The notes below the pieces were generated by a model. That model saw nothing but the letters and a program-made list of their open reading frames with translations. It did no database searches and was not told where the DNA came from. From an uncultured Clostridia bacterium (GTDB lineage: Bacteria; Bacillota; Clostridia; Christensenellales; CAG-138), in contig CAMHJE010000001.1 in NCBI GenBank assembly GCA_946185305.1, positions 23,636 to 87,635 of the forward strand: DNA of 64,000 bases, read 5' to 3'. A program made the position numbers and the translations under genes. Positions 25,661 to 48,351 of the stretch are shown here, one piece after another. Position 1 is the first letter of the stretch, and each line of letters opens with the position of its first letter.

Positions 25661-25690
25661 GGGAAATGTAAAGAAAACGAAAAATGCCGA

Positions 25691-25719
25691 TTGACTTTAC
25701 ACCGCCGCTGTGCTACCAT
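25691..25719 (+). promoter_or_regulatory. ygjV/yesL promoter
   Basis: TTGACT-17 nt-TACCAT. Confidence 0.45.
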
Positions 25720-25746
25720 CGGAAAAAACGAAAGGGGGCAGCCTGC

Positions 25747-26274
25747 ATGGAGAAAACGATTGCGCAGGTCATTGGGTTCGTCGCAGTCGCGGAAAACCTG
25801 CTGATCTATCTCAGCAACCGCCGCGAGCGGATCCTGCTGTGGAAGGCCGTTTCGGACGCGCTGTGGCTTATGAACTATCTGCTCATGGGCGGCTTCACGG
25901 GCGCGATGCTCAACGCCGTGGCGCTTGTGCGCGAGGGCGTGTTTTCGCTGCGCGGCAAGGCGAAATGGGCGGACGGCAAGTGGATCCCGGCGCTGTTTCT
26001 GGCGCTCACATGGCTGTCGCCCGCGCTCGAATGGATCAACGGTGGCGCGTTTACGTGGCTGCCGCTGCTGCCCGCGTTCGGCAGCATGATCTTTGTGCTC
26101 GGCTTTTATGTGAAAAATACCGTGTTCACCAAGGCGTCGTCACTTGTCGGCAACGCGCTGTGGCTGACCTATGCGATCCTGATCGGCAATACTGCCGGGC
26201 TCGTCGGCAATGTGCTGATGCTCGCCTCCGCGCTGATCGGGCTGTGGCGGGAAAGGCAGGCGAAGCACGGATGA
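25747..26274 (+). CDS. YgjV-family inner membrane protein
   Basis: MEKTIAQVIGFVAVAENLLIYLSNRRERILLWK... with multiple TM helices. Start set at the internal ATG, which has a GGGGG RBS. Confidence 0.6.
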   Translation: MEKTIAQVIGFVAVAENLLIYLSNRRERILLWKAVSDALWLMNYLLMGGFTGAMLNAVALVREGVFSLRGKAKWADGKWIPALFLALTWLSPALEWINGGAFTWLPLLPAFGSMIFVLGFYVKNTVFTKASSLVGNALWLTYAILIGNTAGLVGNVLMLASALIGLWRERQAKHG

Positions 26275-26918
26275 AGAAAAAGCCGATGTCCGAAAAGCGC
26301 CTCCGTATTTTGGCGCGGCTCTCGAAAATCACCGATTACCTGCTTGTCGGGCTGCTGTCGTTCGTTATATCGCTGCCTGTCCTCACGCTCGGTGCGGCGG
26401 CCGCCGCGTTTTATGCCGTGGGAAAGCAGCTGCAAAGCGACGAGGGCGGCTCGGCATATCGCACTTACTTTGCGGCGTTCAGGCAATACGGAAAGCGCGC
26501 GACGCTGCTGTGGCTGCCGTTTTTGGGCGTTTTGCTGCTGCTGACGTTCAACGCGCTGTTCTATTGGTACATGGCCGCAAACGATGCGGCGTGGGCGCAG
26601 TTCGGCCTCGGCGTCTGCGCGGCGGTCGCGCTGCTGCTGTCGCTTGCCGGTGCGTTTCTGTTTCCGCTGCTTGTGACAGAGCCGGACAAGGGCGGGCTCG
26701 ACCTTGCCAAGCGTTCGCTGTACCTTGCGGCGCGGGAGCCGCTTTTGTGGGCGGGCAAGACTGCCGTGCAGCTTGCGGCGCTCGCCGCCGTCTGGTTCGT
26801 GCCGTTTCTGATCGTGTTTATCCCCGGTCTGCTGCTTTTTTGGGACACATTTTGTTTTTCCCGTGCCTATGGCAAACGATTTCCGAAAATCAAGGAAGAA
26901 TCGGCAAAACGCGATTGA
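26271..26918 (+). CDS. YesL/DUF624-family membrane protein
   Basis: ITDYLLVGLLSFVISLPVLTLGAAAAAFYAV is a DUF624-like N-terminus. ATGA start/stop overlap with ygjV. Confidence 0.65.
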   Translation: MKKKPMSEKRLRILARLSKITDYLLVGLLSFVISLPVLTLGAAAAAFYAVGKQLQSDEGGSAYRTYFAAFRQYGKRATLLWLPFLGVLLLLTFNALFYWYMAANDAAWAQFGLGVCAAVALLLSLAGAFLFPLLVTEPDKGGLDLAKRSLYLAAREPLLWAGKTAVQLAALAAVWFVPFLIVFIPGLLLFWDTFCFSRAYGKRFPKIKEESAKRD

Positions 26919-26943
26919 CAGACGCCCCTTTTACGTGTAAAAT
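26915..26943 (+). promoter_or_regulatory. Promoter of the 17-gene glycan-utilisation unit
   Basis: TTGACA-17 nt-TAAAAT. The -35 box overlaps the yesL stop codon. Confidence 0.6.
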
Positions 26944-27061: not shown

Positions 27062-29980
27062 ATGAAGAAGAAACAGGGAATGGCTTGGATACTGGCGATC
27101 TGCCTGCTGCTCGGCGAGCTTGTCGGCCTTGTGCCGGTGCCTGCGGCGGCGGACGTCTCCGCGTCCGCAGAACCGAAAGCAGCGGCCACGGCGGCGTATG
27201 CGGCGTATTTGGCGGCGCACGGCGATCCGGCGGCAGCGGCGGCAAACGATACGATCACAATTCCGGCAGCCTCGGTCAACGAGACCGAAGCCTATCTTGC
27301 CGAGTATCAAGGCAAAAGCTCTGTCCTTGTCTGGGACGAGCAGGGCACGGCGTATTCGTGGACGTTCACCGCAAAAACCGCGGGGTACTACCGCCTTGCG
27401 CTGACCTACGCGGGCGTGGCAAACAAACAGTATGATATCACGCTCGACGTGCTGCTGGACGGCGCCGCGCCGTACCCGAACACGCTCGGCGTCAAGCTGC
27501 ATCGTCTGTTCCTCGACGAGACCTACGCCGGCCCCGGCGAGAACGTCTTTTTGCAGAACCTGAACGGCGACGAGATCATGCCCGCGCTGTCCGAGCAGTA
27601 CGCATGGCAGACGCAGTATATTTACGATTCGCAGGGCGCGTATCCCGCGCCGCTGTATTACTGGCTCGACACGGGCGAGCATACGATCACCCTTACCTTA
27701 AAGGACGAAGCCTTTGCGCTCGATGCAATCACCTTTCTGAACCTCCCCAAGGAGCCGACCTACGCCGAAACGCTCACCGCCCATGCAGACGCGGCGGACA
27801 CAAGCGGCGTTCTTCTGACCTATGAGGCCGAAAAAAGCTATCTCAAAAACGACGTGACGCTGTTCGCCACCTACGACACCGCGTACAGCCACGTCACGCC
27901 GGCGAGCGCCGAAAACATTCTCTACAACACCATCGGCAAGAACACATGGAAAAAGGTCGGGCAGATGATCACGTGGGAAATCGACGTGCCCCAGACCGGC
28001 TGGTACTGCGTCGCGTGCAAGGTCAAGCAGTATGACAAGAGCAATGCGTATTCGACGCGCGCGTTCACGATCGACGGCGAGCCGATCTGCGTCGAGGCCG
28101 ACGCGCAAAAGTTCCCGTATAAAACCGGCTGGTACGTGCAGCGGCTCGAAATCGAGGGCGGCGAGCCGATCAAGGTATATCTCGAGGCGGGCCGCCATGT
28201 GCTCGGCATGCGCGCGGTGCTGGACGAGGAGCTGGCAAGCGTGTTGCGCGATGTGAACGGCACCACGGAAAAGCTGCAGGGATGGTACCGCGAAATCATC
28301 AAAATCACCGGCTTCAATGCCGATGCCGAGCGCATCACAATCGACGCCAACCGCGATTTCAGCCTCGAAAAGAACGTGCCGGGTCTGCTCGAGGGTCTTG
28401 CCGCCTGCAAGGCCGAGCTGGACGGCTACTATCAGCGGATCGACGAAATCTCCGAAATCTCCACCGCGAGCGCGTCGATCCTGTCCGAGACCTCGTCGCT
28501 GCTCGGCAAGCTCATCAAGCGCCCCAAAAGGATCGTGCCGCAGATCGAAACGCTGCGTTCGGATATTTCGAGCCTTGCGACATGGGTCATCGACATGCAG
28601 ACGCAGCCGCTGCAGATGGATAAGCTGTATATCTACTCGCCGGACGTGAAAACGCCGCAGGTGGACAACAATATCTTCGTGCAGATCTGGTACCGCTTTT
28701 TGATGTTCCTGCACTCGTTCAAGGGCGGCACGACCGCCGTGACCGGCACCGTGCAGACCGCCGCCGACGCCCCGACGATCCGCGTGTGGATCTCCACCGC
28801 CGACATCACGACCACCGGCGCATCCTCCGGCCGCGATCAGGCGATCATTCTGAAGCGACTGATCGACGAATCCTTCACGGCCTCGACCGGCATCAACGTG
28901 GAGGTCAGCCTCGTTTCCGGCTCCGATACGCTTGTGCAGGCGGTGCTGGCAGGCGAGGGGCCGGATGTGGCGCTGTTCACCTCGACCGATACGCCGGTCA
29001 ACCTTGCGATGCGCGGCGCGGTGCTGGATCTGAGCCGGTTCGACGGTTTTGCCGAAACGACAAAGCAGTTTACCGAAAGCGCGGTCACGCCGTTTTGGTA
29101 TCAGGGCGGGTGCTACGCGTTCCCCGAAACGCAGAATTTCAACGTCCTGTTCTACCGCACCGATATCTACGAGGAATTGGGACTGAAGCCCCCGACGACG
29201 TGGGACGAGTTCTATGAACAGGTGATCTACCTTTCGAACCACAACTACATGGTCGGCGTGCCGCAGAACCAGAACATCTTTGAATCGTTCCTCTACCAGT
29301 CCGGCACAACGTTCTATACGCCCGACTTTTCGGCTTCCACGTTCGACACCGAGGAAGCCTTGGAATCGTTCCAAAGCTGGACGGGGCTGTACACCAAATA
29401 CAGCCTACCGCTGATCTTCGACTTTTTCAATCGCTTCCGGAGCGGCGAAATGGCGCTCGCCATCGAGCCGTATAACCAGGTCAACTACCTCTATTCCGCG
29501 GCGCCGGAGCTGGACGGCCTGTGGCAGATCGCGCCGCTGCCCGCCACGGTGCGCGCCGACGGCACGGTGAGCGGCGTCGAAACCTGCTCGTCCACCGGGT
29601 GCATCGCCTTAAAGGGCACGACCCACCCGGAGGAAGCCTATCAATTCCTGTCGTGGTGGGTATCCGCCAAGACGCAGGGCGATTTCGGCACGCAGGTGGA
29701 GCAGACGCTCGGCGTTGCCGCGCGATACGGCACGGCGAACTTAGAGGCGTTCGAGCGCATCCCGTGGAACCCGGAGCAGGCCGCGGTCATCCGGCAGCAG
29801 CGGCAGAACACCGTCGCGGTCGAGCAGATCCCCGGCAATTACTACATCGCCCGCAACCTCTCGTTTGCGTTCCGCGCGGTCGTGTACAACAAGGCGAACC
29901 TAAGAGAAACGCTCTATAAGTACAATATCGAGATCAATAAAGAACTGGCCCGCAAGCAAAAGGAATTCAGCTATCGGTAA
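27062..29980 (+). CDS. Giant extracellular solute-binding protein: two CBM-like beta-sandwich regions, a helical linker and a family-1 SBP domain
   Basis: Signal or anchor peptide. CBM-like stretches (TAKTAGYYRLALTYAG, QTGWYCVACKVKQ). The C-terminal ~400 aa or so look like a CUT1 sugar SBP (GPDVALFTSTD, PFWYQGGCYAFPET). Confidence 0.7.
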   Translation: MKKKQGMAWILAICLLLGELVGLVPVPAAADVSASAEPKAAATAAYAAYLAAHGDPAAAAANDTITIPAASVNETEAYLAEYQGKSSVLVWDEQGTAYSWTFTAKTAGYYRLALTYAGVANKQYDITLDVLLDGAAPYPNTLGVKLHRLFLDETYAGPGENVFLQNLNGDEIMPALSEQYAWQTQYIYDSQGAYPAPLYYWLDTGEHTITLTLKDEAFALDAITFLNLPKEPTYAETLTAHADAADTSGVLLTYEAEKSYLKNDVTLFATYDTAYSHVTPASAENILYNTIGKNTWKKVGQMITWEIDVPQTGWYCVACKVKQYDKSNAYSTRAFTIDGEPICVEADAQKFPYKTGWYVQRLEIEGGEPIKVYLEAGRHVLGMRAVLDEELASVLRDVNGTTEKLQGWYREIIKITGFNADAERITIDANRDFSLEKNVPGLLEGLAACKAELDGYYQRIDEISEISTASASILSETSSLLGKLIKRPKRIVPQIETLRSDISSLATWVIDMQTQPLQMDKLYIYSPDVKTPQVDNNIFVQIWYRFLMFLHSFKGGTTAVTGTVQTAADAPTIRVWISTADITTTGASSGRDQAIILKRLIDESFTASTGINVEVSLVSGSDTLVQAVLAGEGPDVALFTSTDTPVNLAMRGAVLDLSRFDGFAETTKQFTESAVTPFWYQGGCYAFPETQNFNVLFYRTDIYEELGLKPPTTWDEFYEQVIYLSNHNYMVGVPQNQNIFESFLYQSGTTFYTPDFSASTFDTEEALESFQSWTGLYTKYSLPLIFDFFNRFRSGEMALAIEPYNQVNYLYSAAPELDGLWQIAPLPATVRADGTVSGVETCSSTGCIALKGTTHPEEAYQFLSWWVSAKTQGDFGTQVEQTLGVAARYGTANLEAFERIPWNPEQAAVIRQQRQNTVAVEQIPGNYYIARNLSFAFRAVVYNKANLRETLYKYNIEINKELARKQKEFSYR

Positions 29981-29991
29981 AGGAGGTCGCC

Positions 29992-30912
29992 ATGGGATCC
30001 GATTCGCTGCAAAAGAAAAGACCGGCAAAAGCGCGCGTCTGGTTCCGCAAGCAGGGGCCGAGCCTTGCTTTTCTGGCGCCGTTTACCGTGTTCTTCTTCC
30101 TGTTCACGATCCTGCCGATCATGGCGGCCATCGTGCTCAGCTTCACGTACTTCAACATGGTCAGCACGCCGACGTTCGTGGGTTTCGAGAACTATGTGCG
30201 CCTGTTCTTCGACGACGACGTGTTCTGGATCGCGCTCCGCAATACCGCGATCTTTGCGATGATCACCGGCCCGATCAGCTATGTGCTGTCGTTCTTCGTC
30301 GCGTGGCTGATCAACGAATTCAACCGCACCGTGCGCACGATTTTAACGCTGATCTTCTACCTCCCGTCGCTCGCCGGCAACGTGTATTTTGTTTGGACGT
30401 ACATCTTCTCCGGCGACAGCAACGGCTTTCTGAACAGCATCCTGATCCGGCTCGGCCTGCTTTACGGCCCGATGCAATGGCTGACCGACACCAAGTACAT
30501 GATGGCGGTCGTAATCGTCGTGATCTTGTGGCTGTCGCTCGGCACCGGGTTTCTGTCGTTCGTCGCGGGACTGCAGTCGCTGAACCGCGAGCTGTTCGAG
30601 TCCGCCGCCATCGACGGCATCCCGAACCGCTTTGCCGAGCTTTGGTATATCACCCTGCCGCAGATGGGGCCGCAGCTTTTGTTCGGCGCGGTCATGCAGA
30701 TTTCCACATCGTTCGCCATCGGCTATGAGTGTATGAACCTCACGGGCTTTCCGTCCACCGACTACGCGACGCAGACGCTTGTGCTGCACATCCTCGATTT
30801 CGGACAGGTTCGCTTCGAAATGGGCTATGCCTGCGCGATTGCGGTCGTGCTGTTTGCGCTGATGCTGCTGATGTGGAAGGTCATCAATAAAGTCCTTTCC
30901 AAGTGGTTATAA
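29992..30912 (+). CDS. Carbohydrate ABC transporter permease (MalF/LplB-like)
   Basis: Six TM segments. EAA loop ESAAIDGIPNRFAELWYITLPQMGP. Confidence 0.9.
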   Translation: MGSDSLQKKRPAKARVWFRKQGPSLAFLAPFTVFFFLFTILPIMAAIVLSFTYFNMVSTPTFVGFENYVRLFFDDDVFWIALRNTAIFAMITGPISYVLSFFVAWLINEFNRTVRTILTLIFYLPSLAGNVYFVWTYIFSGDSNGFLNSILIRLGLLYGPMQWLTDTKYMMAVVIVVILWLSLGTGFLSFVAGLQSLNRELFESAAIDGIPNRFAELWYITLPQMGPQLLFGAVMQISTSFAIGYECMNLTGFPSTDYATQTLVLHILDFGQVRFEMGYACAIAVVLFALMLLMWKVINKVLSKWL

Positions 30913-30925
30913 GGGGGTGAAGCGT

Positions 30926-31819
30926 ATGGAATCCGTAACCGTGAAAGCCCCGAAAAAGCGGGAAAAACGTTACCGCCGCGTGACCCTGTCGCGCTCGGTC
31001 GGCGGCACCGTCGCCATCTTCGCGTTCCTCATTCTGATCGGCGCGTTTATGGTGCTGCCGCTTGTGTACGTGCTCGTCACCGCGTTCAAGCCGCTGAATG
31101 AAATTCTGGCATACCCGCCGAAGTTCTTCGTGCAGCATCCGACGCTCGCCAACTTCCGCGACCTGATCGAGATCACGCAGGAAACGTGGGTGCCGTTCGA
31201 ACGGTCGCTGTTCAATTCGCTGATGCTTGCGATCCTCGGCACGTTTGTGTACATCATCATCGCGTCGCTTGCGGCGTACCCGCTGGCGAAGAATCGCTCT
31301 AAATGGGTGTACGTCTATTATCAGGTCGTCGTGCTCGCGATCCTGTTCCGCCCGGAGGTCACAAGGACGCCGCTGTACATCATCATTTCGCGGCTCGGCC
31401 TCATCAATACCTATTGGTCGCTGCTGCTGCCGGTGCTGGCGGGCAGCTTCGGCGTGTTCCTGATGCGCCAGTTCATGATGACGATTCCGGACGAAATGTT
31501 AGAGGCCGCGCGCATCGACGGCGCGAACGAGTTCACGATCTTCTGGCAGTTCATTATGCCGTCGGTCAAGCCCGCATGGATGACGCTGACGATCTTCACG
31601 TTCAAGGATCTGTGGAACACCGGCGAATCGCAGTATATCTACGAGGAAACGCTGAAAACGCTGACCGCGGTCATGCAGTCGATCTCCTCGGCGGGCATTG
31701 CGCGTGCCGGCGCGGGCGCGGTCGTGGCCTTGATCATGATGCTTCCGCCGATCGTCGTGTTCATCATTTCCCAGTCGTCGGTCATCGAAACGATGGCGAC
31801 CTCCGGCATCAAGGGATAA
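30926..31819 (+). CDS. Carbohydrate ABC transporter permease (MalG/LplC-like)
   Basis: EAA loop EAARIDGANEFTIFWQFIMPSVKP. ATG at 30926 has an AAGGGGGTG RBS, whereas the ORF-track start at 30917 is a GTG inside that RBS. Confidence 0.9.
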   Translation: MESVTVKAPKKREKRYRRVTLSRSVGGTVAIFAFLILIGAFMVLPLVYVLVTAFKPLNEILAYPPKFFVQHPTLANFRDLIEITQETWVPFERSLFNSLMLAILGTFVYIIIASLAAYPLAKNRSKWVYVYYQVVVLAILFRPEVTRTPLYIIISRLGLINTYWSLLLPVLAGSFGVFLMRQFMMTIPDEMLEAARIDGANEFTIFWQFIMPSVKPAWMTLTIFTFKDLWNTGESQYIYEETLKTLTAVMQSISSAGIARAGAGAVVALIMMLPPIVVFIISQSSVIETMATSGIKG

Positions 31820-31831
31820 GGGGGTGCGACG

Positions 31832-33271
31832 ATGAAACGGTTACAACGCTTCTTATCCGCGGCGCTTTCGCTGTTCCTTTGTCTGCTGCCGCTTCTTGCG
31901 GTCGCGGACGATTCGGAGGTGCCGTATCAGACCTATACCTATGACCGGTGGAGCAATCCGACGCCGACGCCCAACGCCTATCTGCCCACGCGCAGCATCG
32001 GCGGTGCACAGCTCGGCTGCGGCAACTTCAGCGCCGCGCAGGATCTGTTCTATAACGAGGCGCGGCATGAGATCTACGTGGCCGACTCCGGCAACGCGAG
32101 GATCCTTGTGCTGGACGAGGACTTTACGCTGCTGCGGGAGATCAAGGAATTGAACAACCCCGACGGCGAAGCCTACGCGCTGAAAAACCCGCAGGGGCTT
32201 TTCGTGCAGGACGACGGCACGGCCTATATCTGCGACATGGGCAATCAGCAGGTCGTCGTCGCGGATGAAACCGGGACGCTTGTCCGCATCCTGCCGACGC
32301 CCGTTTCGCCGCTGCTGCCGGAGAACTTCAACTATCTGCCGACCAAGATCGTCGTGGACGAAAACGGCAGAATCTATATCCTCTCGCGCGGCGTGTACCA
32401 AGGGCTGATTTATCTGGAGCCGGACGGGACGTTCATCAAATTCTTCGGCCCCAACGAAGTTGAAATGACGTTCGGGCGGCAGGTGCAAAAGCTCTGGAAG
32501 TCGATCCTGTCCGATCAGGCCGCCGCGTCGATGCAGTCGTTCAACCCGATCGAATACAGCAACCTGTTCCTCAGCGACGAGGGCTACATCTTTGCCACCG
32601 CCGCGGGCAGCGAAAACGGCGCAAGGGTGCTGACGCAGCTGAATCCGCTCGGCATCAATGTACTGAACTGGACGGGCGGCAGCGAAACGCTGCTGTATTC
32701 AGACGCCGTGGAGCGGGACGGCATCATCGTGCTGCTCGATACGAACGGCGGGCATCTGATCCAAACGACCGTGCAGCGCGACGCGGGCCTGTCCATGCAG
32801 ATCACCTTCGGCGGCGTCGGACAGCAGCTCGGCCTGTTCCAAAAGCCGGTTTCGCTTGTCGAGATCGGCGGCAATCTGTACGTGCTCGACGCCGAAAAGA
32901 ATACGATCACCGAGTTCGTGCTGACCGATTTCGGCAGAGAGATTCACGAGGCGATCATGTATTACAACCAAGGGCTGTATACCGAAAGCATCGCGCCGTG
33001 GCAGCAGGTCATCCATCACAACACCAACTATCTGCCCGCGTATTCCGGCCTCGGCAAGGCGTATTATCAGATGCGCGATTATGCGACGGCCATGTACTAC
33101 TTCAAGCTCGCGGGCGACCGGCAGAACTATTCGCTCGCGTTCAAGGAGCAGTCGTTGATCGCCATGCGGCAGGCGTTCCCGTATATTGCGCTCGGGCTTC
33201 TGCTCATGATCGTCGCGTGGGTGATCCTGGGGCGCGTGCTGAAAAAGCGAAAGGAGGCGCGGCATGGATAA
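31832..33271 (+). CDS. Secreted NHL-repeat beta-propeller protein with a TPR-like segment and a C-terminal TM anchor
   Basis: Signal peptide. NHL-type repeats (IYVADSGNARILVLD, AYICDMGNQQVVVAD, LYVLDAEKNTITEF). TPR-like GLGKAYYQMRDYATAMYYFKLA. Terminal TM helix PYIALGLLLMIVAWVILG. Confidence 0.7.
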   Translation: MKRLQRFLSAALSLFLCLLPLLAVADDSEVPYQTYTYDRWSNPTPTPNAYLPTRSIGGAQLGCGNFSAAQDLFYNEARHEIYVADSGNARILVLDEDFTLLREIKELNNPDGEAYALKNPQGLFVQDDGTAYICDMGNQQVVVADETGTLVRILPTPVSPLLPENFNYLPTKIVVDENGRIYILSRGVYQGLIYLEPDGTFIKFFGPNEVEMTFGRQVQKLWKSILSDQAAASMQSFNPIEYSNLFLSDEGYIFATAAGSENGARVLTQLNPLGINVLNWTGGSETLLYSDAVERDGIIVLLDTNGGHLIQTTVQRDAGLSMQITFGGVGQQLGLFQKPVSLVEIGGNLYVLDAEKNTITEFVLTDFGREIHEAIMYYNQGLYTESIAPWQQVIHHNTNYLPAYSGLGKAYYQMRDYATAMYYFKLAGDRQNYSLAFKEQSLIAMRQAFPYIALGLLLMIVAWVILGRVLKKRKEARHG

Positions 33272-33911
33272 GGTAAAATCGCTGCTCCGTGAGGCGGGCG
33301 CAGGCTTTTCGCAATGCTTCTACACGATGTTCCATCCGGTCAACGGCTTCGACCAGGTCAAGTGGGAGAAGAAGGGAAACGTCCTCACCTGCGTGTGCAT
33401 CCTCCTTGCGTTCTTTTTGACCAACGTATTCGAGCAGGTGCTGACCGGGTTCATCTTCAATACCTATAACCCGGATCGCATCTCGGTGCCGTCGATCCTT
33501 CTGATCACGATGGGCGGCTTTGCGATCGCCTACGTCGCCAACTGGGCGGCGGGGTCGCTGCAGTTCTCCGAGGGCGAAGCGCGGGATATTCTGATCGTGC
33601 TGTGCTATACGCTTGTGCCGTATACGATCTTCGCGCTCGCGCATATCTTCTTTACCAACTTTGCCAACGCGGAGCTGAACGCATTTCTGGTCGCGCTGCG
33701 CGTGGTCGGCTACCTTTGGAGCGGCATGATTTTAGTGTTCGGCATGTACTACGTGCATCAGTTCAGCTTCGGCGGACTGGTGCTGAACCTGTTTTTAACC
33801 GTCGTCGGCATCGCGATCATCCTGTTCCTGCTGCTTTTAGGCTATTCACTTGTGCAGCAGATGAGCACGTTTGTCGTGACGATCTACAACGAGATCGCAT
33901 TCCGGCTGTGA
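33264..33911 (+). CDS. Yip1-domain integral membrane protein
   Basis: Five predicted TM helices with Yip1-like topology. The start overlaps the previous gene by 8 nt. Confidence 0.6.
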   Translation: MDKVKSLLREAGAGFSQCFYTMFHPVNGFDQVKWEKKGNVLTCVCILLAFFLTNVFEQVLTGFIFNTYNPDRISVPSILLITMGGFAIAYVANWAAGSLQFSEGEARDILIVLCYTLVPYTIFALAHIFFTNFANAELNAFLVALRVVGYLWSGMILVFGMYYVHQFSFGGLVLNLFLTVVGIAIILFLLLLGYSLVQQMSTFVVTIYNEIAFRL

Positions 33912-33925
33912 GGGAGGGGGACGGC

Positions 33926-36232
33926 ATGAAAAGAACAATGATTTCCCTCCTTGCGGCGCTGCTGCTTTTCAGCACGCTTTTCGGCTGCTCGGCGGCAAGA
34001 CCTGCGGTGCCCGTGCGCGAAACGCATGTGGACGCCACGGCGGGCTTTTCCCCGGCTGCTTCGGAAAACGAGCTGGTCGAGATTTCCCAAAGCGGCCGCT
34101 TCACGCTGTTTGCTAACCTCAAGAACGGCGAGGCGGCGGTGGAGGATCGGCAAAACGGCGTGACGTGGTACACCAACCCGGTCGATAAGTTCGACGACAC
34201 GCTGGCCTCCGGCTATTATAAGAACGCGCTGCTCAGCGCGATCACGGTCGTGTATACGACGGTGCAGAACGTCGAAATGACCTGTGGCGGGTATCTGTCG
34301 AGCGTGCAGAAAAAGGGACTGTATTACCGCATCGAGCCGGACGGCTCCATCGTGTTCCTGTTCGATTTTCCGAACGAGCAGCTTCGTGTGCCGATCCGCT
34401 ATGCGATTACGGACGATCACTTCGAGGCGTCGATCCTCACCGACGGCATTTTGGAATACGGCGCGAATAAGATCAAATCCATCGACCTGTTGCCGTTCTT
34501 CGGTGCGGGCAGCCACGACGAGGACGGGTACATGTTCGTGCCGGACGGCTGCGGCGCTTTGATCCGGTTCAACAACGAACGTCTGACCGCGCGAACCTAT
34601 ACGCAGGGTCTGTACGGCTTCGACAATGGCACGAACGACAAGACGATGGGCGGCGCGGCAATCGCGGGCTACTTCACGCTGTCGCAAAACGCGTATCTGC
34701 CGGTGTTCGGCATCCATAAGAACGACGACGGATTTCTTGCCGTGATCTCGTCCGGCGCGCCGCGCGCGACGCTGAATGCGAACGTCGCGGATAAGTATTC
34801 GTTCTACAACAATGTGTGGACGACGTATTCCTACCGCACGGTCGGCACGGTGCGGCAGACGCAGAAGGACGGCACCGATCAGGTCGTTTCCATCGGGGAA
34901 AAGAACCTCGAAACCTACGCCGACTACACCGTTTCCTACTACTTCCTCGATACCGGCCATGCCGCCTATGCAGACATGGCAAAGCGTTACCGGGACTATC
35001 TGATCGAAAACGAGGGCCTCGCGGTTCGCACGGCGGGCGGCGCGGCGGTGCCGCTGTATCTCGACGTATACGGCTATATCGAAAAGCCCAAATCGCTGCT
35101 CGGCATCCCGGTCGATACCAAGATCACGACCGCGTCGGTCGAGGACGTCGATGCGATGCTCGACGCGCTCCATTCGGACGGCATCGACCGTGTCGTGCTC
35201 AAATACAACTATTGGTCCAAGGACAGCTTCTATCGCAAGCTCCCGACCACCGGCGATACGGACGGCAAGGTCGGCAGCAACGCCGCGATGCTCGCGCTGC
35301 AGACGCGGCTTACCGGAACCGGCGGCGGGCTGTTCCTCGGCGCGGATCTCATGAACGTCTACAAGTCCGGCCGCGGCGTGAACCAGTACCGCGACGCGCT
35401 CCAGTCGGTCGCCAACACCGTGCAGCGGCAGTATGCGTTCCGGCTCGATTCGGCTTTGGTCGATTCGCGCTATGAGCCGTGGTATCTCTTGCGGCTCGGC
35501 GCGGTAAACCGCGTGTTCGGCACGTATGCCGGGAACCTGAAAAAGAACGGCTTTACCGGCGCGGCGCTCGACACGGTCGGCGAGCGTCTCTATTCCGAAC
35601 TCGGCACCGGCGGCACGGGGCGCAATCAGGCACGGGAAATCATGGCGGCGGCGGTGCAGAGCGTGCAGACAACGGCGGGCGGCGTGCTGGTGACCGGCGC
35701 GAACGAATACGCGGCCAACTACGCCTCGCACATCCTCGTCACGCCCGCGGGCAGCAGCGGCTACGACTTGGAGGACGCTGCGATCCCGTTCTATCAGATG
35801 GTGTATCACGGCTGCGTATCGTATTCGATCCGCGCGTCCAACCTGTCGAGCAACCCGCGCGATCTGACGCTCACCTGCCTCGAATACGGCGCGTATCCGC
35901 TGTTTTCACTGATCTGTGAGAATACCGACGAGCTGATCGGCTCGCGGCTGAACAGCCTCTATTCGGCGGACTTTGCGGACTGGCGCGGCTTTATGGCGGC
36001 ACAGTATGCGCAGGTCAACGCGGCGCTTTTGCCGGTGCAGACGGCGTTTGTCACCGGACATGAGATCGTAACGGACACGGTGCGCCGTGTGACGTATGAC
36101 AACGGCGTGACCGTGTATGTCAACTACGGCGACGCGGCTTACGGCATAGACGGCATAACGATTCCGGCGCGCGGCTTTGCGGCGGCGCAGGGCGGCACGG
36201 TCTACGCAAGCGGCACAGCGGTCGGGGACTGA
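33926..36232 (+). CDS. Large lipoprotein of unknown function; I recall this type being annotated DUF5696; possible distant glycosidase-like fold
   Basis: Lipobox LFSTLFGCS at a start with a GGGAGGGGGA RBS. 768 aa with no recognisable catalytic motif. The ORF-track N-terminal extension overlaps the Yip1 gene and was discarded. Confidence 0.55.
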   Translation: MKRTMISLLAALLLFSTLFGCSAARPAVPVRETHVDATAGFSPAASENELVEISQSGRFTLFANLKNGEAAVEDRQNGVTWYTNPVDKFDDTLASGYYKNALLSAITVVYTTVQNVEMTCGGYLSSVQKKGLYYRIEPDGSIVFLFDFPNEQLRVPIRYAITDDHFEASILTDGILEYGANKIKSIDLLPFFGAGSHDEDGYMFVPDGCGALIRFNNERLTARTYTQGLYGFDNGTNDKTMGGAAIAGYFTLSQNAYLPVFGIHKNDDGFLAVISSGAPRATLNANVADKYSFYNNVWTTYSYRTVGTVRQTQKDGTDQVVSIGEKNLETYADYTVSYYFLDTGHAAYADMAKRYRDYLIENEGLAVRTAGGAAVPLYLDVYGYIEKPKSLLGIPVDTKITTASVEDVDAMLDALHSDGIDRVVLKYNYWSKDSFYRKLPTTGDTDGKVGSNAAMLALQTRLTGTGGGLFLGADLMNVYKSGRGVNQYRDALQSVANTVQRQYAFRLDSALVDSRYEPWYLLRLGAVNRVFGTYAGNLKKNGFTGAALDTVGERLYSELGTGGTGRNQAREIMAAAVQSVQTTAGGVLVTGANEYAANYASHILVTPAGSSGYDLEDAAIPFYQMVYHGCVSYSIRASNLSSNPRDLTLTCLEYGAYPLFSLICENTDELIGSRLNSLYSADFADWRGFMAAQYAQVNAALLPVQTAFVTGHEIVTDTVRRVTYDNGVTVYVNYGDAAYGIDGITIPARGFAAAQGGTVYASGTAVGD

Positions 36233-36244
36233 CGGGAGGTGCGT

Positions 36245-37165
36245 ATGGCAAAGCAACGGAAAAAGCATTACTCGTTGGTGCGGCGGCAGAACCGCGCGGG
36301 CTGGATGTTCGTGATGCCGTTTGTGATCGGCTTTCTGATCTTCTTCGCCAAGCCGATGGTCGAGAGCTTCTGGTACACGCTCAACGACGTGACGATGGGG
36401 CAGAACGGCCTCGAAACCAAGTGGGTCGGCCTCGGCAACTTCCGCTATCTGCTGCTGGAGGACAGCAGCTTTCTGCGAAACCTTTGGACGGTAACAAGCC
36501 AGATGCTTGCGCAGGTTGCGATCTGCACGATCCTGTCGCTGTTCATCGCCATCGTGCTGGTACAGAACTTCCGCGGCCGCACGATCTACCGCGCGATCTT
36601 CTTCCTGCCGATCATCATGACGAGCGGCGTCGTGTATTCGATGGTCAGCTCGGTCGTCGGCTCGTCGGGGCTTTCCGGCACCGGCAACGCCTATATCTAT
36701 TCGTCGGTGTCGATGACGACGCTGATGCAGCAAGGCGGCGTGCCGACGGCGTTCATCAATCTGATCACACAGGTCATCGACGCGATCTTCTCGATGGTCG
36801 TGAACTGCGGCGTGCCGATCCTGCTGTATATCTCCGGCCTCCAGAAGATCCCGCAGAGCGCGTATGAAGCGGCGCGGATCGAGGGCGCGAGCACATGGGA
36901 TATCTTTTGGCGCATCACGATCCCGAAGATCTTCCCGATCATCTTCTTGAACGTCGTCTACTGCGTGATCGACGCTTCGACGGCCTACGGCGCGCAGCAG
37001 GGCGGCAACGTCATGATGGCGGCGATTCAGCAAATGGGCTTCGGCAAGACAATGAAGTTCGGCATGAGCGCCGCGATGGCTTGGATGTACTTCCTCGTGA
37101 TCGCGCTGTTCCTGGGTCTTGCATGGCTCACCATCGGGCGCCGCGCGGCCAAGATCGAGAATTGA
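36245..37165 (+). CDS. Carbohydrate ABC transporter permease (second system, MalF-like)
   Basis: EAA loop EAARIEGASTWDIFWRITIPKIFP. GGGAGG RBS. Confidence 0.9.
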   Translation: MAKQRKKHYSLVRRQNRAGWMFVMPFVIGFLIFFAKPMVESFWYTLNDVTMGQNGLETKWVGLGNFRYLLLEDSSFLRNLWTVTSQMLAQVAICTILSLFIAIVLVQNFRGRTIYRAIFFLPIIMTSGVVYSMVSSVVGSSGLSGTGNAYIYSSVSMTTLMQQGGVPTAFINLITQVIDAIFSMVVNCGVPILLYISGLQKIPQSAYEAARIEGASTWDIFWRITIPKIFPIIFLNVVYCVIDASTAYGAQQGGNVMMAAIQQMGFGKTMKFGMSAAMAWMYFLVIALFLGLAWLTIGRRAAKIEN

Positions 37166-37179: not shown

Positions 37180-38160
37180 ATGCAGCGTTCCCCGCAGGCG
37201 GAGGTCAACCGCATGATCCTTCGCAACCGCATCATCGGCATTATTTTGGCGATCCTCCGGCACGTCTTTTTGATCGGGCTTTGCTACGTCGTACTGTATC
37301 CGGTGCTGTACATGGTCAGCAACGCGTTCAAGCCCGTCTCCCAATACTATGACCCCTCGGTCGTTTGGATCCCGCGCTCCTTAACGCTCGATAACTTCAT
37401 GATCGTGTTCACGGTCATGGATGTCGGCAAGGTGCTGCTGAATACCCTGCTGATCGAAATTCTGCCCGCGTTTATTTCGACGTTCATCTGCATGATGGTC
37501 GGTTACGGACTGGCGCGGTTCGATTTCCGCGGCAAGGCGCTGATCCTCGGCTGCGTGATCTTGACGATCATCGTCCCGCCGCAGACGATCTCGACCTCGC
37601 TGTATTCGAGCTATCGGTACTTCGACTTTTTAGGCATTTTAAGTCTGCTGCACAACGTATTCCCCGCCATCGGCCCGATCAATCTGATCGGCACGCCTTG
37701 GGTCACGATCCTGCCCTCGATCTTCGGCGTCGGGCTCAAAAACGGCATCTTCATTTTCATCTTCATGCAGTTCTTCACCGGCCTGCCCAGAGAGCTGCAG
37801 GAGGCCGCCGCCATCGACGGCTGCGGGCCGCTGCGCACGTTTTTGAAGATCATCCTGCCGACGGCGAAGAACATCGTGATCGCGGTGCTGCTGCTCGCGG
37901 TCGTGTGGAACTGGAACGACTACTATACGCCCGCCATGTACATCCGCACGACGGACACGATGGCCACCGCGATGGCGGCTTTCCGGGCAAATTTAGAGAA
38001 CCTGCACAACATGGGCACCGGCCTTGAGAACATTCAGACCGCGAATACGCAGATTCAGGCCGCGGCGCTGATCGCAATTCTGCCGCTTGTCATTCTGTAT
38101 GTATTTTTGCAAAAGCGGTTTTCCGAGGGCATCGAGGACTCCGGCCTGACCGGTATTTAA
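37180..38160 (+). CDS. Carbohydrate ABC transporter permease (second system, MalG-like)
   Basis: EAA loop EAAAIDGCGPLRTFLKIILPTAKN. Start at MQRSPQAEV with a GGGAGG RBS. Confidence 0.9.
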   Translation: MQRSPQAEVNRMILRNRIIGIILAILRHVFLIGLCYVVLYPVLYMVSNAFKPVSQYYDPSVVWIPRSLTLDNFMIVFTVMDVGKVLLNTLLIEILPAFISTFICMMVGYGLARFDFRGKALILGCVILTIIVPPQTISTSLYSSYRYFDFLGILSLLHNVFPAIGPINLIGTPWVTILPSIFGVGLKNGIFIFIFMQFFTGLPRELQEAAAIDGCGPLRTFLKIILPTAKNIVIAVLLLAVVWNWNDYYTPAMYIRTTDTMATAMAAFRANLENLHNMGTGLENIQTANTQIQAAALIAILPLVILYVFLQKRFSEGIEDSGLTGI

Positions 38161-38204: not shown

Positions 38205-39644
38205 ATGAAGAACACCGTTTCCAAAATCGTTTGTCTCATGCTCGCTTTGACCATGTGCTTCGGCCTTTTCGCCTGCACAAGCGAGATCGCGCCGTCCGCG
38301 CAGACGAACACGCCGTCCAACCCGGTCACCGGCGCGACCGATCCGACGACCGGCGCCGCGCCGGCAGCGCAGACCGAACCCGAAAAGACCGAAAGCACCG
38401 AGCCGCAGAACGGCGAGGTCGCGGGCGAGATCATCACGGGCGGCGGCGCGGAAGCCGGCTTCCTTGACAACGTCGAGGGCTTGCCGGACACGCTCGCCAA
38501 TCCGAACATCACCATCGTCTACTGGTACAACCCGAAGCAGTACGCCGTCGATATCCGCAAGCAGGCCGACGTATACGACCCGATCTTAGAGGCGATCCCG
38601 TACTTTGAAGAAAAGTACGGCGGCAAGGTCACGGTCATCTACGCCGCGTGGGGCGACATGCTCGAAACCGTCACGTCCCTGCAGAACGCGGGCGACGCGC
38701 CCGATCTCTTCGAGGTCTACGACGAAACGATGTACAGCGTGATCCTGTCCGGCGTAGCGATGAATCTGGATCCCTACGTAACCGATTTCGATTACAGCTA
38801 CTATAAGGTCAACCGCGAAACGTTCCAATGGAAGGGCAGCGACTATGCGATCCCGCTGAAGCCCTACGCGTTCTATATCATGTACAACAAGGATCTGTTC
38901 GATCTGGAGGGCCTCGACGATCCCGCGACGATGTTCCAGCAGGGCAAGTGGAACTGGGATACGTTCCGCGATGTCTGCAAGCGGCTCACCAAGACCGTGG
39001 ACGGCGAGTTGAGCCAGGTCGCTTACGGCTCGTGGGAGGATACGATCCTGTCGTTCATGTATGCCAACGGCGGCTCTCTGCTCAATATCGACACCAAGAC
39101 CGGCGAGGTCGCTTCGAACCTCGGCTCCGTCCAGACGCAGGACACGATCAACTACCTGATCGAGCTGAAGGACTGCTTCATCTACGGCAACGATATGTGG
39201 GGCTGGTTCGACAACGGCGCCATGGCGATGATCCGCGGCCATGAATACCCGGTCGATTTCCCGTTCGATACCGGCATGGTGCCGTTCCCGACCGGCGACG
39301 ATTACGAGGGCAAGAACCTTGTCGTCTATCCGCAGGGCATGGCCGTCCCGAACGGCGCAAAGAACCCGGAGGGCGCGGTGGCGTTCATGCGCGTCGTCAA
39401 TGAAATGCAGAAGAACGTCGGCGATCAGAAGGAAGCGAACCGCATCGGGCAGGCCAACTACGACATGATCTATGCCGACGACGTGAACCTCGTCTATCAG
39501 TATGACAAGGGCCTCAACGACATCGGCACCGTGATCGCTACGATTGTCAATTACATCCGTGACGGCGTTCCGGCGGCCACGATCAACGCAAACCTTGAAT
39601 CGCAGCTGCAGGCCGAAATCAACCTGATGTACAACGACCGGTAA
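38205..39644 (+). CDS. Sugar ABC transporter substrate-binding lipoprotein
   Basis: Lipobox GLFACTS followed by a Pro/Thr/Glu-rich linker and a family-1 SBP body. Confidence 0.85.
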   Translation: MKNTVSKIVCLMLALTMCFGLFACTSEIAPSAQTNTPSNPVTGATDPTTGAAPAAQTEPEKTESTEPQNGEVAGEIITGGGAEAGFLDNVEGLPDTLANPNITIVYWYNPKQYAVDIRKQADVYDPILEAIPYFEEKYGGKVTVIYAAWGDMLETVTSLQNAGDAPDLFEVYDETMYSVILSGVAMNLDPYVTDFDYSYYKVNRETFQWKGSDYAIPLKPYAFYIMYNKDLFDLEGLDDPATMFQQGKWNWDTFRDVCKRLTKTVDGELSQVAYGSWEDTILSFMYANGGSLLNIDTKTGEVASNLGSVQTQDTINYLIELKDCFIYGNDMWGWFDNGAMAMIRGHEYPVDFPFDTGMVPFPTGDDYEGKNLVVYPQGMAVPNGAKNPEGAVAFMRVVNEMQKNVGDQKEANRIGQANYDMIYADDVNLVYQYDKGLNDIGTVIATIVNYIRDGVPAATINANLESQLQAEINLMYNDR

Positions 39645-39662: not shown

Positions 39663-41846
39663 GTGGAAAGAGGCATATATTTCGACGGCTGGTATCACGA
39701 CAACCATTGCTACCATCCGAGTCTGCCGTATCGCTCGATGCAGATGGTCGAGGATTTGGAGCGTTATCAAGCGACGATTCTCGTCTGGTCCTGCCTCGGC
39801 GGCGGCTCGATCTCGCTGCCGTACCTGGAGAATGAAGCGTTTGGCGAGGTAGATCCTCGCCTGCGCTTTTACGGATACATGAACGACGCCGAGTTTATCG
39901 CAGAGTGCAGCAAGCGCGGCATCAAGACCATGGGCATCGTCTTTGAGGTGCAGGGCTGGGAATTCCCGGTCGAGGTCAGCGCGGACGGCAAGCACATGAA
40001 GGCGTTCAACGTCCTGCGCGACCGCCCCTCCGATCAGGGCGAAGCCTATTACGGCCTCAACGAATTCTCCTCTGGCAAGTTCGACGGCCTGTTCCGCACA
40101 AAACTGGCCGACTATTACCCGGACGGGATCATCAACAGCGACGGCGAGCGCGTGACCGCCTTGCAGGAGGAGGCCGCGGCGCGCACGTTTCGCGGCGAGC
40201 CGGTGCATGCGGGCTGGGTCGAGGTCAAGGGCCATTCGCGCACCTGCTATCAGACCTGCCGCAACAACCCCGTATGGCGCGGCTACCTCAAAAAGATCAT
40301 GGAGCTGCAGATCGACGCGGGCGTATACGGCATCCAGCTCGACGAGGCCGAGCTGCCGATCACGTCGATGGGCGCGGGCGGCTGCTTCTGCAAGGACTGC
40401 GTCAAGCAGTTCCGCGTGTATTTGCAGGAGAAGAAGGCAAACGGTACGCTGCCCAAGGGGTATGAGGGCTTCGATCTCGACACGTTCGATATCGGGCAGT
40501 ATCTGCGCGATTGCGGCGTGCATCACCCGACCGAATCGTGGACATACCGCGACGTGTATGAATTCCAGATGCGCGCGGTGAAGAAGCACTTTACCGAGCT
40601 GGTCGAGCACGCGCGGCGCTATGCCAAGGAAACGTATGACCGCGATATTTGGATGAGCGGCAACTTTTTCACCTGCATGCCGGTCTACTATCCGTTCGAG
40701 AACACCGTGGACTGCGTGATCACCGAAATGGATCACACGCTGTTCCGGCAGCCGCATTGGTATCGCTATATTGCGGGCTTCTCGAACGACAAGCCCGTGA
40801 TCGTCGCGGAAAATCCCTACGGCGGCATTATCCCGCAGCTGTTGGAGCAGCTCAACAAGGGCAAAGGCTATGACCTCTACCGGCTGCTGCTGCTGGAAGC
40901 GTCGGTCTACGGCTGCAATATGAGCGTGCCTTACGGCGGATGGATGGGCAACACGATCAAAACCGGCTTTTGGCCCCCGCGCGACGTGACCGAGCAGGTG
41001 CAGACGTTTTTAGCCGAGCACGACGATTTGTTCGGCAAGCGCAGCGGCGCAAACGTACTGGTGCCGTATTCATTCCCGAGCTACTACTGGCGTGAGGTCA
41101 CCAAGAAGGGCGGCGGCGACCAGTTCACCGATGTGGATTCGATTCTGTTCTACAAGTCCGTCGAGGAGCAGAGCGAGAACGCGTCCCGTCTGTCGTTTTG
41201 GGAGATCATCCAACGGCTTTCCGAGCAGCAGACGCTGTACGACGTGCGCATGTTCGGCGACGACGAGCTGCGCCCCGACCGCGTTTCGGCGGACGACTGG
41301 ACGCAGTACGACCTGATCATCCTGCCGGAATGTGATTATCTCACGGCGAATCAATGCGAGGAGATCGAACGCTTTGCCCGCCGCGGCGGCAAGGTGCTGC
41401 TGTTCGGCCTGACCGCTTTGAACCGGCCCGGCTGGGCGGAGCGCATGACCGCGCTGCCGAACGTGATCCTCGTCCCGAACCCCGCGCCGCGCCGCGCCGC
41501 ACTGCGGCTGTTTACAGACGCGTTCAAGCTGCTGTATCGCGGCTGCGAGCAGCTTTCGATCCAAACCGAAAATCCCAAGGACGCCGCGTTTATCGGCGCG
41601 AACAGCCACGAAGCGAACGGCAAACGCAGTCTGCATCTTTTGAACTACCGCTATGACGCGCAAAAGGACGCCGTGCAGCCGATCGAAAACGTGACGGTCC
41701 GGTTCCGTCCCCGTGCCGCGGCAAGCGGGGCAAGGGTCATCGACCTTGACGGCAAGCCGATCCCCGCCGACGTGCGGATCGAAAACGGCGCGCTGACCGT
41801 GCGCCTTTGGACTCTCCCGCTGTATGCGGCTATCGTAATGGAGTAA
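39663..41846 (+). CDS. Uncharacterised three-domain protein with GH42-like architecture (putative glycosidase)
   Basis: QLDEAE strand motif followed by CFCKDC, with TCYQTC about 42-46 residues upstream. The C-terminal DLIILPECDYL...RRGGKVLLFG resembles a GATase-like or trimerisation domain. Apparent GTG start. Confidence 0.5.
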   Translation: MERGIYFDGWYHDNHCYHPSLPYRSMQMVEDLERYQATILVWSCLGGGSISLPYLENEAFGEVDPRLRFYGYMNDAEFIAECSKRGIKTMGIVFEVQGWEFPVEVSADGKHMKAFNVLRDRPSDQGEAYYGLNEFSSGKFDGLFRTKLADYYPDGIINSDGERVTALQEEAAARTFRGEPVHAGWVEVKGHSRTCYQTCRNNPVWRGYLKKIMELQIDAGVYGIQLDEAELPITSMGAGGCFCKDCVKQFRVYLQEKKANGTLPKGYEGFDLDTFDIGQYLRDCGVHHPTESWTYRDVYEFQMRAVKKHFTELVEHARRYAKETYDRDIWMSGNFFTCMPVYYPFENTVDCVITEMDHTLFRQPHWYRYIAGFSNDKPVIVAENPYGGIIPQLLEQLNKGKGYDLYRLLLLEASVYGCNMSVPYGGWMGNTIKTGFWPPRDVTEQVQTFLAEHDDLFGKRSGANVLVPYSFPSYYWREVTKKGGGDQFTDVDSILFYKSVEEQSENASRLSFWEIIQRLSEQQTLYDVRMFGDDELRPDRVSADDWTQYDLIILPECDYLTANQCEEIERFARRGGKVLLFGLTALNRPGWAERMTALPNVILVPNPAPRRAALRLFTDAFKLLYRGCEQLSIQTENPKDAAFIGANSHEANGKRSLHLLNYRYDAQKDAVQPIENVTVRFRPRAAASGARVIDLDGKPIPADVRIENGALTVRLWTLPLYAAIVME

Positions 41847-48316: not shown

Positions 48317-48337
48317 AAAACACAGATTTGACGCATG

Positions 48338-48351
48338 AGTAAACGTTTTCA
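48338..48351. promoter_or_regulatory. LacI-type operator, site D
   Basis: agtaaaCGttttca, upstream of the -35 box of the lipoprotein promoter. Confidence 0.45.

Follow-up and report, generated by a model that had tools for sequence, protein, structure and literature searches.

The 64,000-nucleotide (nt) stretch of DNA analysed here, termed the window (positions 23,636 to 87,635 of contig CAMHJE010000001.1 in assembly GCA_946185305.1, from an uncultured Clostridia bacterium of the Christensenellales), encodes at positions 27062-36232 a run of six tightly packed genes, coding for a giant substrate-binding protein (SBP), two sugar permeases, an NHL-repeat propeller protein, a Yip1-domain membrane protein and a lipoprotein of the family DUF5696. 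The region is best interpreted, with a probability of roughly 0.6, as the conserved core of Gram-positive glycan-utilisation loci, consisting of a dual CUT1-type importer and three dedicated accessory proteins. The original prediction, made from the DNA sequence of the window alone, envisaged a six-gene unit with one ATP-binding cassette (ABC) importer; comparison with related loci instead shows that two importers and eight or nine genes are conserved as a unit. The cassette of the window comprises the following features, with protein lengths in amino acids (aa):

26915..26943, + strand: promoter-like site (TTGACA, 17 nt, TAAAAT; 11 of 12 matches), a consensus match only, 119 nt before the first gene
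27062..29980, + strand: giant SBP of importer A, 972 aa, with a signal peptide, two CBM35-like sandwiches, a helical bundle and a CUT1 SBP domain
29992..30912, + strand: permease A1, MalF/UgpA-like, 306 aa (BPD_transp_1, UgpA-like, EAA loop)
30917..31819, + strand: permease A2, MalG/UgpE-like, 300 aa (BPD_transp_1, UgpE-like, EAA loop)
31832..33271, + strand: NHL/TPR type I membrane protein, 479 aa, with a signal peptide, NHL beta-propeller, TPR, C-terminal transmembrane segment and short basic tail
33264..33911, + strand: Yip1-domain membrane protein, 215 aa, with five transmembrane segments; the first 8 nt lie within the NHL gene
33926..36232, + strand: DUF5696 lipoprotein, 768 aa, with a GH129/GH101-like fold, starting at an ATG within a longer GTG open reading frame (ORF; 33602-36232)
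36239..37165, + strand: permease B1 of the second importer, 6 nt past the DUF5696 gene (BPD_transp_1 sub-threshold)
37180..38160, + strand: permease B2, after a gap of 14 nt, starting at ATG 37180, which has AAGGGAGG upstream, and not at ATG 36895
38205..39644, + strand: substrate-binding protein B (SBP-B), 479 aa, after a gap of 44 nt (SBP_bac_1, SBP_bac_8), a lipoprotein with lipobox LFAC

The first six ORFs are separated by 11, 4, 12, -8 (an overlap) and 14 nt, in agreement with the tight packing originally reported, and the array runs on past position 36232, with six further + strand genes up to 46032 separated by gaps of 6, 14, 44, 18, 13 and 3 nt. The right-hand boundary at 36232 is arbitrary, and the six genes make up two thirds of a nine-gene cassette. 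No convincing terminator-like site was found between the promoter-like site and position 43000.

A pattern scan in which each species was represented by one genome identified at least 595 loci encoding a relative of the DUF5696 protein, of which the best 80 were fetched and compared, with synteny counts derived from tblastn of the window proteins against the fetched loci. Five clusters of greedily called ORFs (c10, c14, c21, c22 and c28) were excluded as antisense artefacts of high-GC loci. The 80 loci derive from Paenibacillus, Lederbergia, Oscillospiraceae, Ruminococcaceae, Acutalibacteraceae, Lachnospiraceae, Christensenellales and unclassified Clostridia. The genes for the giant SBP, A1, A2, NHL, Yip1 and DUF5696 proteins occur in this order in all 60 loci whose upstream DNA was long enough, and the N-terminal and SBP parts of the giant protein are contiguous in each of them, giving the same fused architecture in 60/60. 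The synteny between accessory and transporter genes that the original prediction had called for is thereby borne out in relatives. Permease pair B follows the DUF5696 gene in 67/67 loci with enough downstream DNA, with B1 directly after it, and its two genes are adjacent in 57 of the 67 and split by extra genes in ten. A homologue of SBP-B is located downstream in 32 of 50 testable loci and occurs only upstream of the giant SBP in four more, and additional SBPs of greater divergence are grouped in a looser ORF cluster (c5). As pair B and the usual SBP-B follow the DUF5696 gene, the conserved unit therefore comprises eight or nine genes and two importers.

Independent gene calls place the same cassette around the most distant DUF5696 match (P0120, 24% identity), as well as in Paenibacillus sp. 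VCA1, and the cassette genes are syntenic across the Bacilli and Clostridia at protein identities of 24-35%. At least four genomes carry two copies of the cassette. One contig labelled Candidatus Udaeobacter sp. (L076, DATJKM010000222.1) was rejected as an indication of spread beyond the Bacillota; it is 94% identical at the DNA level over 8.7 kb to Paenibacillus sp. Soil522 (L013), and from this match the contig is almost certainly mis-binned and provides no evidence for the cassette in the Verrucomicrobiota.

The genes flanking this constant core vary between loci. Seven Paenibacillus loci contain two or three genes of glycoside hydrolase (GH) family 32, together with a PfkB kinase in five and an upstream AraC-type response regulator in three; such fructan-type flanks combine up to three GH32 genes with a PfkB kinase of the fructokinase type. 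GH32 and LacI genes are present in three Lachnospiraceae loci. Paenibacillus sp. VCA1 and locus L077 encode GH10, GH43 and esterases, including, in VCA1, a multimodular xylanase in which GH10 is joined to carbohydrate-binding modules (CBM), while GH13 genes lie on the opposite strand in loci L002, L003, L007, L008 and L072, some of which are Christensenellales-like. In ten Oscillospiraceae loci the flanks encode DUF4838 and two families without a Pfam match, and the 86 singleton flank proteins include GH43 (four), GH67, GH115, GH113, GH26, GH2, PL6, CBM6 and CBM35. The ten Oscillospiraceae-type loci (L019, L022, L023, L026, L030, L032, L043, L047, L056 and L064) are those with extra DNA between the B1 and B2 homologues, which mostly encodes the two Pfam-less proteins (about 350 aa and 480-840 aa), with the DUF4838 protein encoded after SBP-B. 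A further recurrent Pfam-less family of about 880-920 aa (cluster c15) is encoded beside SBP genes downstream of the cassette in L044, L045, L066, L071 and L078.

Regulators in the related loci include AraC-type response regulators with histidine kinases, and the window contains a LacI regulator. Defined operationally as a transporter, at least one carbohydrate-active enzyme and a regulator in one neighbourhood, a Gram-positive polysaccharide utilisation locus (PUL) is present in the window, where GH2, GH10, GH106-like, GH4 and GH38 proteins and LacI are encoded around the cassette transporter, and in the related loci as well. Because the cassette has catabolic glycosidases, sugar kinases and sugar-type regulators among its neighbours, its setting fits the surface capture and import of glycans envisaged in the original prediction, although not of one particular glycan. 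A single-substrate system was considered and rejected, as the cassette sits in fructan-, xylan-, alpha-glucan-type and other loci, and determination of the substrate by the neighbouring enzymes is the best-supported reading of the flank variation. The DUF5696 proteins and giant SBPs of the Lachnospiraceae GH32-type loci have their nearest relatives outside their own clade in the Paenibacillus GH32-type loci, and the Paenibacillus xylan-type cassettes group apart from the GH32-type ones. By these sequence relationships the cassette lineages follow flank type rather than taxonomy, which is explicable by substrate-linked divergence.

The giant SBP of importer A has a fused architecture, in which about 560 additional N-terminal residues precede the SBP domain. 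Its parts are located as follows:

27239..27751, + strand: first CBM35-like beta-sandwich, aa ~60-230, with a profile match to CBM35 structures and model strands at a predicted local distance difference test (pLDDT) score of 80-90
27809..28219, + strand: second CBM35-like beta-sandwich, aa ~250-386, with a profile match to the CBM35 of 5x7g
28226..28600, + strand: helical bundle, aa 389-513, with long helices in the model and profile matches to designed antiparallel coiled-coil bundles
28769..29980, + strand: CUT1 oligosaccharide-binding domain, aa ~570-972 (SBP_bac_1 E 1e-24; Foldseek)

The two sandwiches, helices and CUT1 SBP domain correspond to the features originally described, apart from the extent of the SBP domain, which makes up about 40% of the protein rather than its C-terminal third. 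Alignment to SBP families is clear, with SBP_bac_1 matched at aa 596-872 (Pfam, E 1e-24) and the modelled domain resembling the sugar SBPs 5ci5, 5ysf, 9xf5, 5f7v and 4r9f in Foldseek (E 1e-17 to 1e-21), which bind sophoro-, cycloisomalto- and manno-oligosaccharides, cycloalternan and maltodextrins. The whole-protein fold search was dominated by these SBP-domain matches and was uninformative on the N-terminal part, which was identified with a family profile built from 62 sequences. This profile matches the CBM35 structures 2w47, 2w1w and 2vzp over the first sandwich (E 4e-4 to 4e-3) and the CBM35 of a cycloisomaltooligosaccharide glucanotransferase (5x7g, E 4.8e-10) over the second. In the window protein itself, CBM_35 (18.8-22.3 bits against a gathering threshold of 28) and Golvesin_C are both sub-threshold in Pfam; among the 62 homologues CBM_35 matches 11 (E 0.01 or better) and Golvesin_C matches the second sandwich of 27. 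The sandwiches are CBM35-like by this profile-level homology, and carbohydrate binding is predicted for them. The helical bundle could serve as a stalk or docking element, and the AlphaFold2 model adds a conserved amphipathic helix (aa 538-554) between it and the SBP domain. The window protein has a signal peptide and no lipobox, and most members of the family likewise have a signal peptide or anchor without a lipobox cysteine, which the DUF5696 protein and SBP-B do possess. A segment at aa 255-295 (window 27824-27946) is strongly conserved throughout the family (EAEKSYLKND..TLFATYDT...), with many invariant columns, and is modelled at pLDDT below 50 despite this conservation; it may become ordered only on binding of a partner.

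Permeases A1 and A2 match BPD_transp_1 in Pfam, as UgpA-like and UgpE-like proteins respectively, and contain the EAA loops ESAAIDGIPNRFAELWYITLP and EAARIDGANEFTIFWQFIMP, in accordance with the two sugar permeases originally proposed; EAA motifs were read in the pair A translations only. The match to BPD_transp_1 exceeds the curated cut-off for A1, A2 and B2 and is sub-threshold for B1 (21.8 bits, cut-off 26.4); independent gene calls show the domain in its counterparts. Conservation within the cassette is highest for pair A, at 47-87% identity across classes, the range also seen between A1 and its homologues in related loci. SBP-B matches SBP_bac_1 with an E of 3e-23. No transport ATPase is encoded in the 64-kb window, where the sole combination of Walker A and LSGG signature is found in a UvrA-like ORF (10638-13136). 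In the Bacillota a shared ATPase is usually encoded elsewhere in the genome, and membership of the CUT1 family is thus not excluded by this absence.

The accessory genes between the two importers code for the NHL, Yip1 and DUF5696 proteins. The secreted NHL propeller with a TPR-like segment and C-terminal membrane anchor, as originally proposed, has a signal peptide, an NHL match of 42 bits (Pfam cut-off 20) and a C-terminal transmembrane segment at about aa 443-472, and among structures in the PDB it matches the NHL domain of Thin (E 2e-13) and the PknD sensor domain (E 2e-9). The TPR at aa 376-430 is sub-threshold in Pfam and is backed by matches to TPR structures in the PDB. The Yip1 protein matches PF04893 at 47 bits (cut-off 28.6, E 3e-12) and contains five hydrophobic segments in the transmembrane scan, matching the five-span Yip1 protein of the original prediction. 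In 26 loci NHL/TPR and Yip1 form one in-frame ORF of about 616-850 aa; Pfam confirms the fusion (NHL, TPR and Yip1, or NHL and Yip1) in three of these from three lineages, and one more NHL-Yip1 fusion (696 aa) occurs in independent gene calls. The order of topological elements is consistent, with a signal peptide, extracellular propeller and TPR, transmembrane segment, cytoplasmic linker and five-span Yip1 core.

The 768-aa protein is a lipoprotein, as anticipated, with the lipobox LFGC, and, while no catalytic motif had been recognised in it, its fold is assignable. It matches DUF5696 (PF18952) over model positions 15-612 of 612 (E 1e-164, 549 bits, cut-off 25.6); this family comprises 4128 clusters at 50% identity with an E of 1e-30 or better, and no additional Pfam domains were found in its longer members. 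The structural model (pLDDT 91, predicted template modelling score (pTM) 0.91) consists of an N-terminal sandwich, a (beta/alpha)8 barrel and a C-terminal sandwich. Foldseek aligns it with the GH129 structures 5opq and 8rzk (ZgGH129; E 1e-29, template modelling score about 0.6-0.7), followed by NagBb (5wzn, E 1e-23), GH101 (E 1e-17) and then GH36 and GH31. A single-sequence search of the PDB sequences produced no match and a family profile was needed, which retrieved the same GH129 chains at E 8e-9 and 1e-6. GH129-like fragments also carry precomputed matches to both PF12905 and PF18952. As a homologue search with a NagBb fragment gave short fragments only, a GH129 set of full-length NagBb and 17 relatives was rebuilt from metagenome contigs, and hhalign against the alignment of these 18 sequences gave a probability of 99.5% (E 3e-22, 16% identity). 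Because Foldseek, the family profile, the shared Pfam matches and hhalign agree, the DUF5696 protein is established, at the level of profile and modelled fold, as a remote homologue of GH129/GH101.

The catalytic pair of NagBb, presumably D435 (nucleophile) and E478 (acid/base), is invariant in 18/18 GH129 sequences. The nucleophile is not a family-wide feature of DUF5696, the aligned column 549 being D or E in 20 of 39 members (the six commonest residues are D13, E7, R6, G4, S3 and A3), with D549 present in the window protein and relatives of at least 42% identity; as the GH129 alignment has only 16% identity, a shift of a few residues at this column is possible. Opposite the acid/base E478 there is a gap, between G591 and A592, where the neighbouring columns are not acidic across the family, and the sugar-stacking W398 of GH129 is not conserved in DUF5696. 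Scaffold residues common to both families are Y338, Y355-R356, W430, R566 and H628. The DUF5696 family has its own near-invariant set, namely D207 (in the PDGSGALI motif), D233, [DE]558 (39/39), R566, N593, D617 (36/39), N639 and E653 (34/39). Judged from the secondary-structure positions of the model, the residues from position 558 on directly follow barrel strands, and D207 and D233 are in the N-terminal domain. Since the presumed GH129 carboxylates are not conserved family-wide, the novel depolymerase suggested in the original prediction is not established. The DUF5696 protein may or may not be an enzyme, with GH129-type glycosidase activity a candidate function on the grounds of profile homology and modelled fold.

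In the mechanism proposed for the cassette, the giant SBP, which has no lipid anchor, would be exported and retained at the cell surface by the accessories and other cassette components. Glycan chains or long oligosaccharides would be captured by the CBM35-like domains and then handed over by the SBP domain to permease pair A. The NHL/TPR-Yip1 unit may provide the membrane scaffold on which the complex is assembled, a role comparable to that of YknW for the ABC exporter YknXYZ. For every substrate type the DUF5696 protein would provide a subunit derived from a glycosidase, serving in binding or docking or else as a trimming enzyme whose catalytic residues have been relocated. The smaller products could be taken up by importer B through its ordinary lipoprotein SBP; ATPase subunits would be supplied from elsewhere in the genome, and cytoplasmic glycosidases encoded beside the cassette would finish degradation.

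The alternative that survives best is that the DUF5696 protein is an active extracellular glycosidase or transglycosylase, which would cut the polymer captured by the CBM-SBP protein down to a size fit for import and diverge in specificity by lineage, with the other cassette parts working as proposed above. In addition to the GH129/GH101 fold and profile homology, the position of [DE]558, R566, N593, D617, N639 and E653 at the C-terminal ends of barrel strands, the retention in the window subfamily of D or E at the GH129 nucleophile position (D549) and the correspondence of DUF5696 lineages with flank type all favour it. Every recognised glycosidase of the window locus lacks a signal peptide, which leaves the DUF5696 protein as the only exported, surface-exposed protein with a glycosidase fold there. 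This has to be set against the absence of D or E at the nucleophile column in nearly half of the family (20/39 retain it) and the gap opposite the acid/base glutamate. Furthermore, characterised members of GH129 and GH101 and of the structural neighbours GH36 and GH31 act on alpha-glycosides, whereas the cassette occurs in loci for beta-linked fructans and xylans, and a multimodular xylanase is already present among the genes of the locus in Paenibacillus sp. VCA1. Taken together, an active DUF5696 enzyme appears rather unlikely, and the two remaining alternatives are less likely still.

It is improbable that the giant SBP, NHL and Yip1 proteins form a sensor of extracellular polymer, and not an uptake device, that controls the activity or assembly of importer B or signals to neighbouring regulators. 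NHL propellers do serve as extracellular sensor domains, as in PknD, the cassette is often immediately preceded by a histidine kinase paired with an AraC-type response regulator, and the presence of two importers could mean that one has turned regulatory. Domain searches of the window accessory proteins, however, revealed no kinase, GGDEF or DNA-binding domain; the regulators differ between loci (AraC, LacI, two-component) or are not next to the cassette; and the high conservation of pair A and retention of its EAA loops argue for a working transporter. That the NHL, Yip1 and DUF5696 proteins form an independent unit, for example for cell-envelope maintenance, merely inherited between two ordinary importers, would accord with the lack of direct interaction evidence and of a described role in sugar uptake for the three proteins, and is very improbable given the invariant gene order in 60/60 and 67/67 loci across Bacilli and Clostridia at 24-35% identity, the gaps of 14 nt or less or overlaps, and the finding that no examined locus has the trio without both permease pairs.

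Several points weigh against the interpretation of the region as a conserved core with dedicated accessories. The observations concern the composition, order, fusions, folds and variable flanks of the cassette, and each role given to an individual accessory is inferred. Only the best 80 of at least 595 loci were examined and other contexts for DUF5696 may exist. Horizontal transfer of entire loci could by itself account for the agreement between lineage and flank type, and the near-invariant carboxylates of DUF5696 fit an active enzyme as well as a scaffold. In addition, the AlphaFold2 model of the giant SBP is only moderately confident (pLDDT 71, pTM 0.46), and its retention at the surface is a guess.

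A broader interpretation, put forward tentatively, is that the cassette represents one ancient surface glycan-harvesting machine present in much of the Bacillota, a monoderm counterpart of SusCD serving many substrates. It would consist of a wall-spanning CBM35-stalk-SBP protein, a propeller-Yip1 scaffold and a glycosidase-fold protein in complex with two importers. The glycosidase-fold protein would have non-canonical active-site residues, and the paralogous cassette lineages would correspond to substrate classes, as SusC/D pairs do.

The cassette shares with CUT1 importers (MalEFGK2, UgpABCE) and Gram-positive PULs the SBP_bac_1 domain, MalF/MalG-type permeases with EAA loops, an ATPase outside the locus and adjoining glycosidases and sugar regulators. 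It differs from them in having two full permease pairs with three conserved genes between the importers, and a giant SBP with some 560 extra N-terminal residues and no lipid anchor. The three-domain fold and profile homology link the DUF5696 protein to GH101 and GH129, the latter including the alpha-N-acetylgalactosaminidase NagBb and the 3,6-anhydro-D-galactosidase ZgGH129; unlike these stand-alone enzymes, it is a lipoprotein in a transporter cassette and has its own near-invariant residues. A glycosidase-fold ectodomain acts as the ancillary subunit of eukaryotic heteromeric amino-acid transporters in the SLC3 heavy chains (rBAT and 4F2hc), of which 4F2hc lacks the canonical catalytic residues. 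These belong to an unrelated lineage and transporter class, and may serve as an analogy for the DUF5696 protein as a glycosidase-derived subunit. With the SusC/SusD system of the Bacteroidota the cassette has in common a constant capture-and-import core, variable carbohydrate-active enzymes and regulators, paralogous copies per genome and core lineages that follow substrate type. The likeness is one of working only, as there is no homology and no outer membrane, and import is by ABC transporters as opposed to TonB-dependent transporters.

The original prediction had stated no described role for a Yip1 protein in sugar uptake, and none was found. YknW, a Yip1-family protein of the Bacillus YknWXYZ system, does however modulate the assembly of an ABC transporter, and thus represents a Yip1-domain membrane protein encoded together with such a transporter (PMC4887032). 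It was the only precedent found in the literature. YknYZ belongs to the MacB-type exporters and has a membrane fusion protein, whereas the partners in the cassette are type I importers, and the cassette Yip1 is coupled or fused to an NHL/TPR ectodomain. No mention of DUF5696 or PF18952 was found in the searchable papers, nor any description of this gene combination (Yip1 or NHL with an ABC transporter and SBP, or CBM-SBP fusions), and no function already assigned to DUF5696 or to the cassette was encountered.

In the window the cassette is followed, within the same tight array, by three genes:

39663..41846, + strand: 727-aa protein, after a gap of 18 nt, with a weak GH42M-like match and no signal peptide
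41860..45150, + strand: GH106-like rhamnosidase, 1096 aa, after a gap of 13 nt (Pfam), with no signal peptide
45154..46032, + strand: IU-nucleoside-hydrolase-like protein, after a gap of 3 nt (Pfam), with no signal peptide

These are regarded as lineage-specific cytoplasmic cargo, and all three recur together only in the closest loci, L002 and L009, in both of which the 727-aa homologue sits between SBP-B and the GH106-like gene; the latter is also found on the opposite strand in L007 and L008. The 727-aa protein has weak matches to GH42M and ABC_transp_aux and may be an uncharacterised glycosidase. Downstream of 46032 are a GH4 gene, a PfkB kinase, a 666-aa secreted protein, a GH38 gene and, further on, the LacI regulator. 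The 666-aa protein (48335-50335) gives a weak C1q-domain match and has a signal peptide behind an internal methionine, and is the only likely exported protein of the island besides those of the cassette. A glycyl-radical enzyme (PFL-like and Gly_radical) is encoded at the right end of the island (58413-60611).

Upstream of the cassette are GH2, GH10, YgjV-like membrane protein and DUF624 genes. A long GTG ORF at 25710-26918 in fact represents two genes that overlap by 4 nt, as follows:

25684-26274: YgjV-like inner-membrane protein (PF10688)
start at ATG 26271, within 25684-26918: DUF624/YesL-like protein, 215 aa

The same pair precedes the cassette in L009, and DUF624 was rejected as a core member as it occurs upstream only in the window and in that locus. 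Two long antisense ORFs opposite the giant SBP and DUF5696 genes (27698-29374 and 33884-35809, both on the - strand, 558 and 641 aa) were dismissed as composition artefacts and not genes, with similar ones present in many high-GC loci.

ABC-based glycan loci are already known; what is new is a fixed dual-importer cassette with a CBM-SBP fusion, NHL-Yip1 and a GH129-like lipoprotein. To our knowledge, Gram-positive glycan foraging is usually described without a conserved Sus-like surface apparatus, in terms of secreted enzymes and ordinary ABC importers. The cassette, which occurs in Oscillospiraceae, Lachnospiraceae, Christensenellales and Paenibacillus, is a candidate for such a conserved surface apparatus in Gram-positive gut and soil bacteria, in which it may correspond to the Sus core. 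Culturable Paenibacillus species carry the GH32-type cassette, which makes the idea testable on levan, inulin and fructo-oligosaccharides. The association would place DUF5696 in a functional context for the first time and connects a nutrient importer with an NHL propeller and a Yip1 protein, a connection found in no paper searched, and the cassette could be used as a marker of glycan-utilisation loci in the genomes of the Bacillota.

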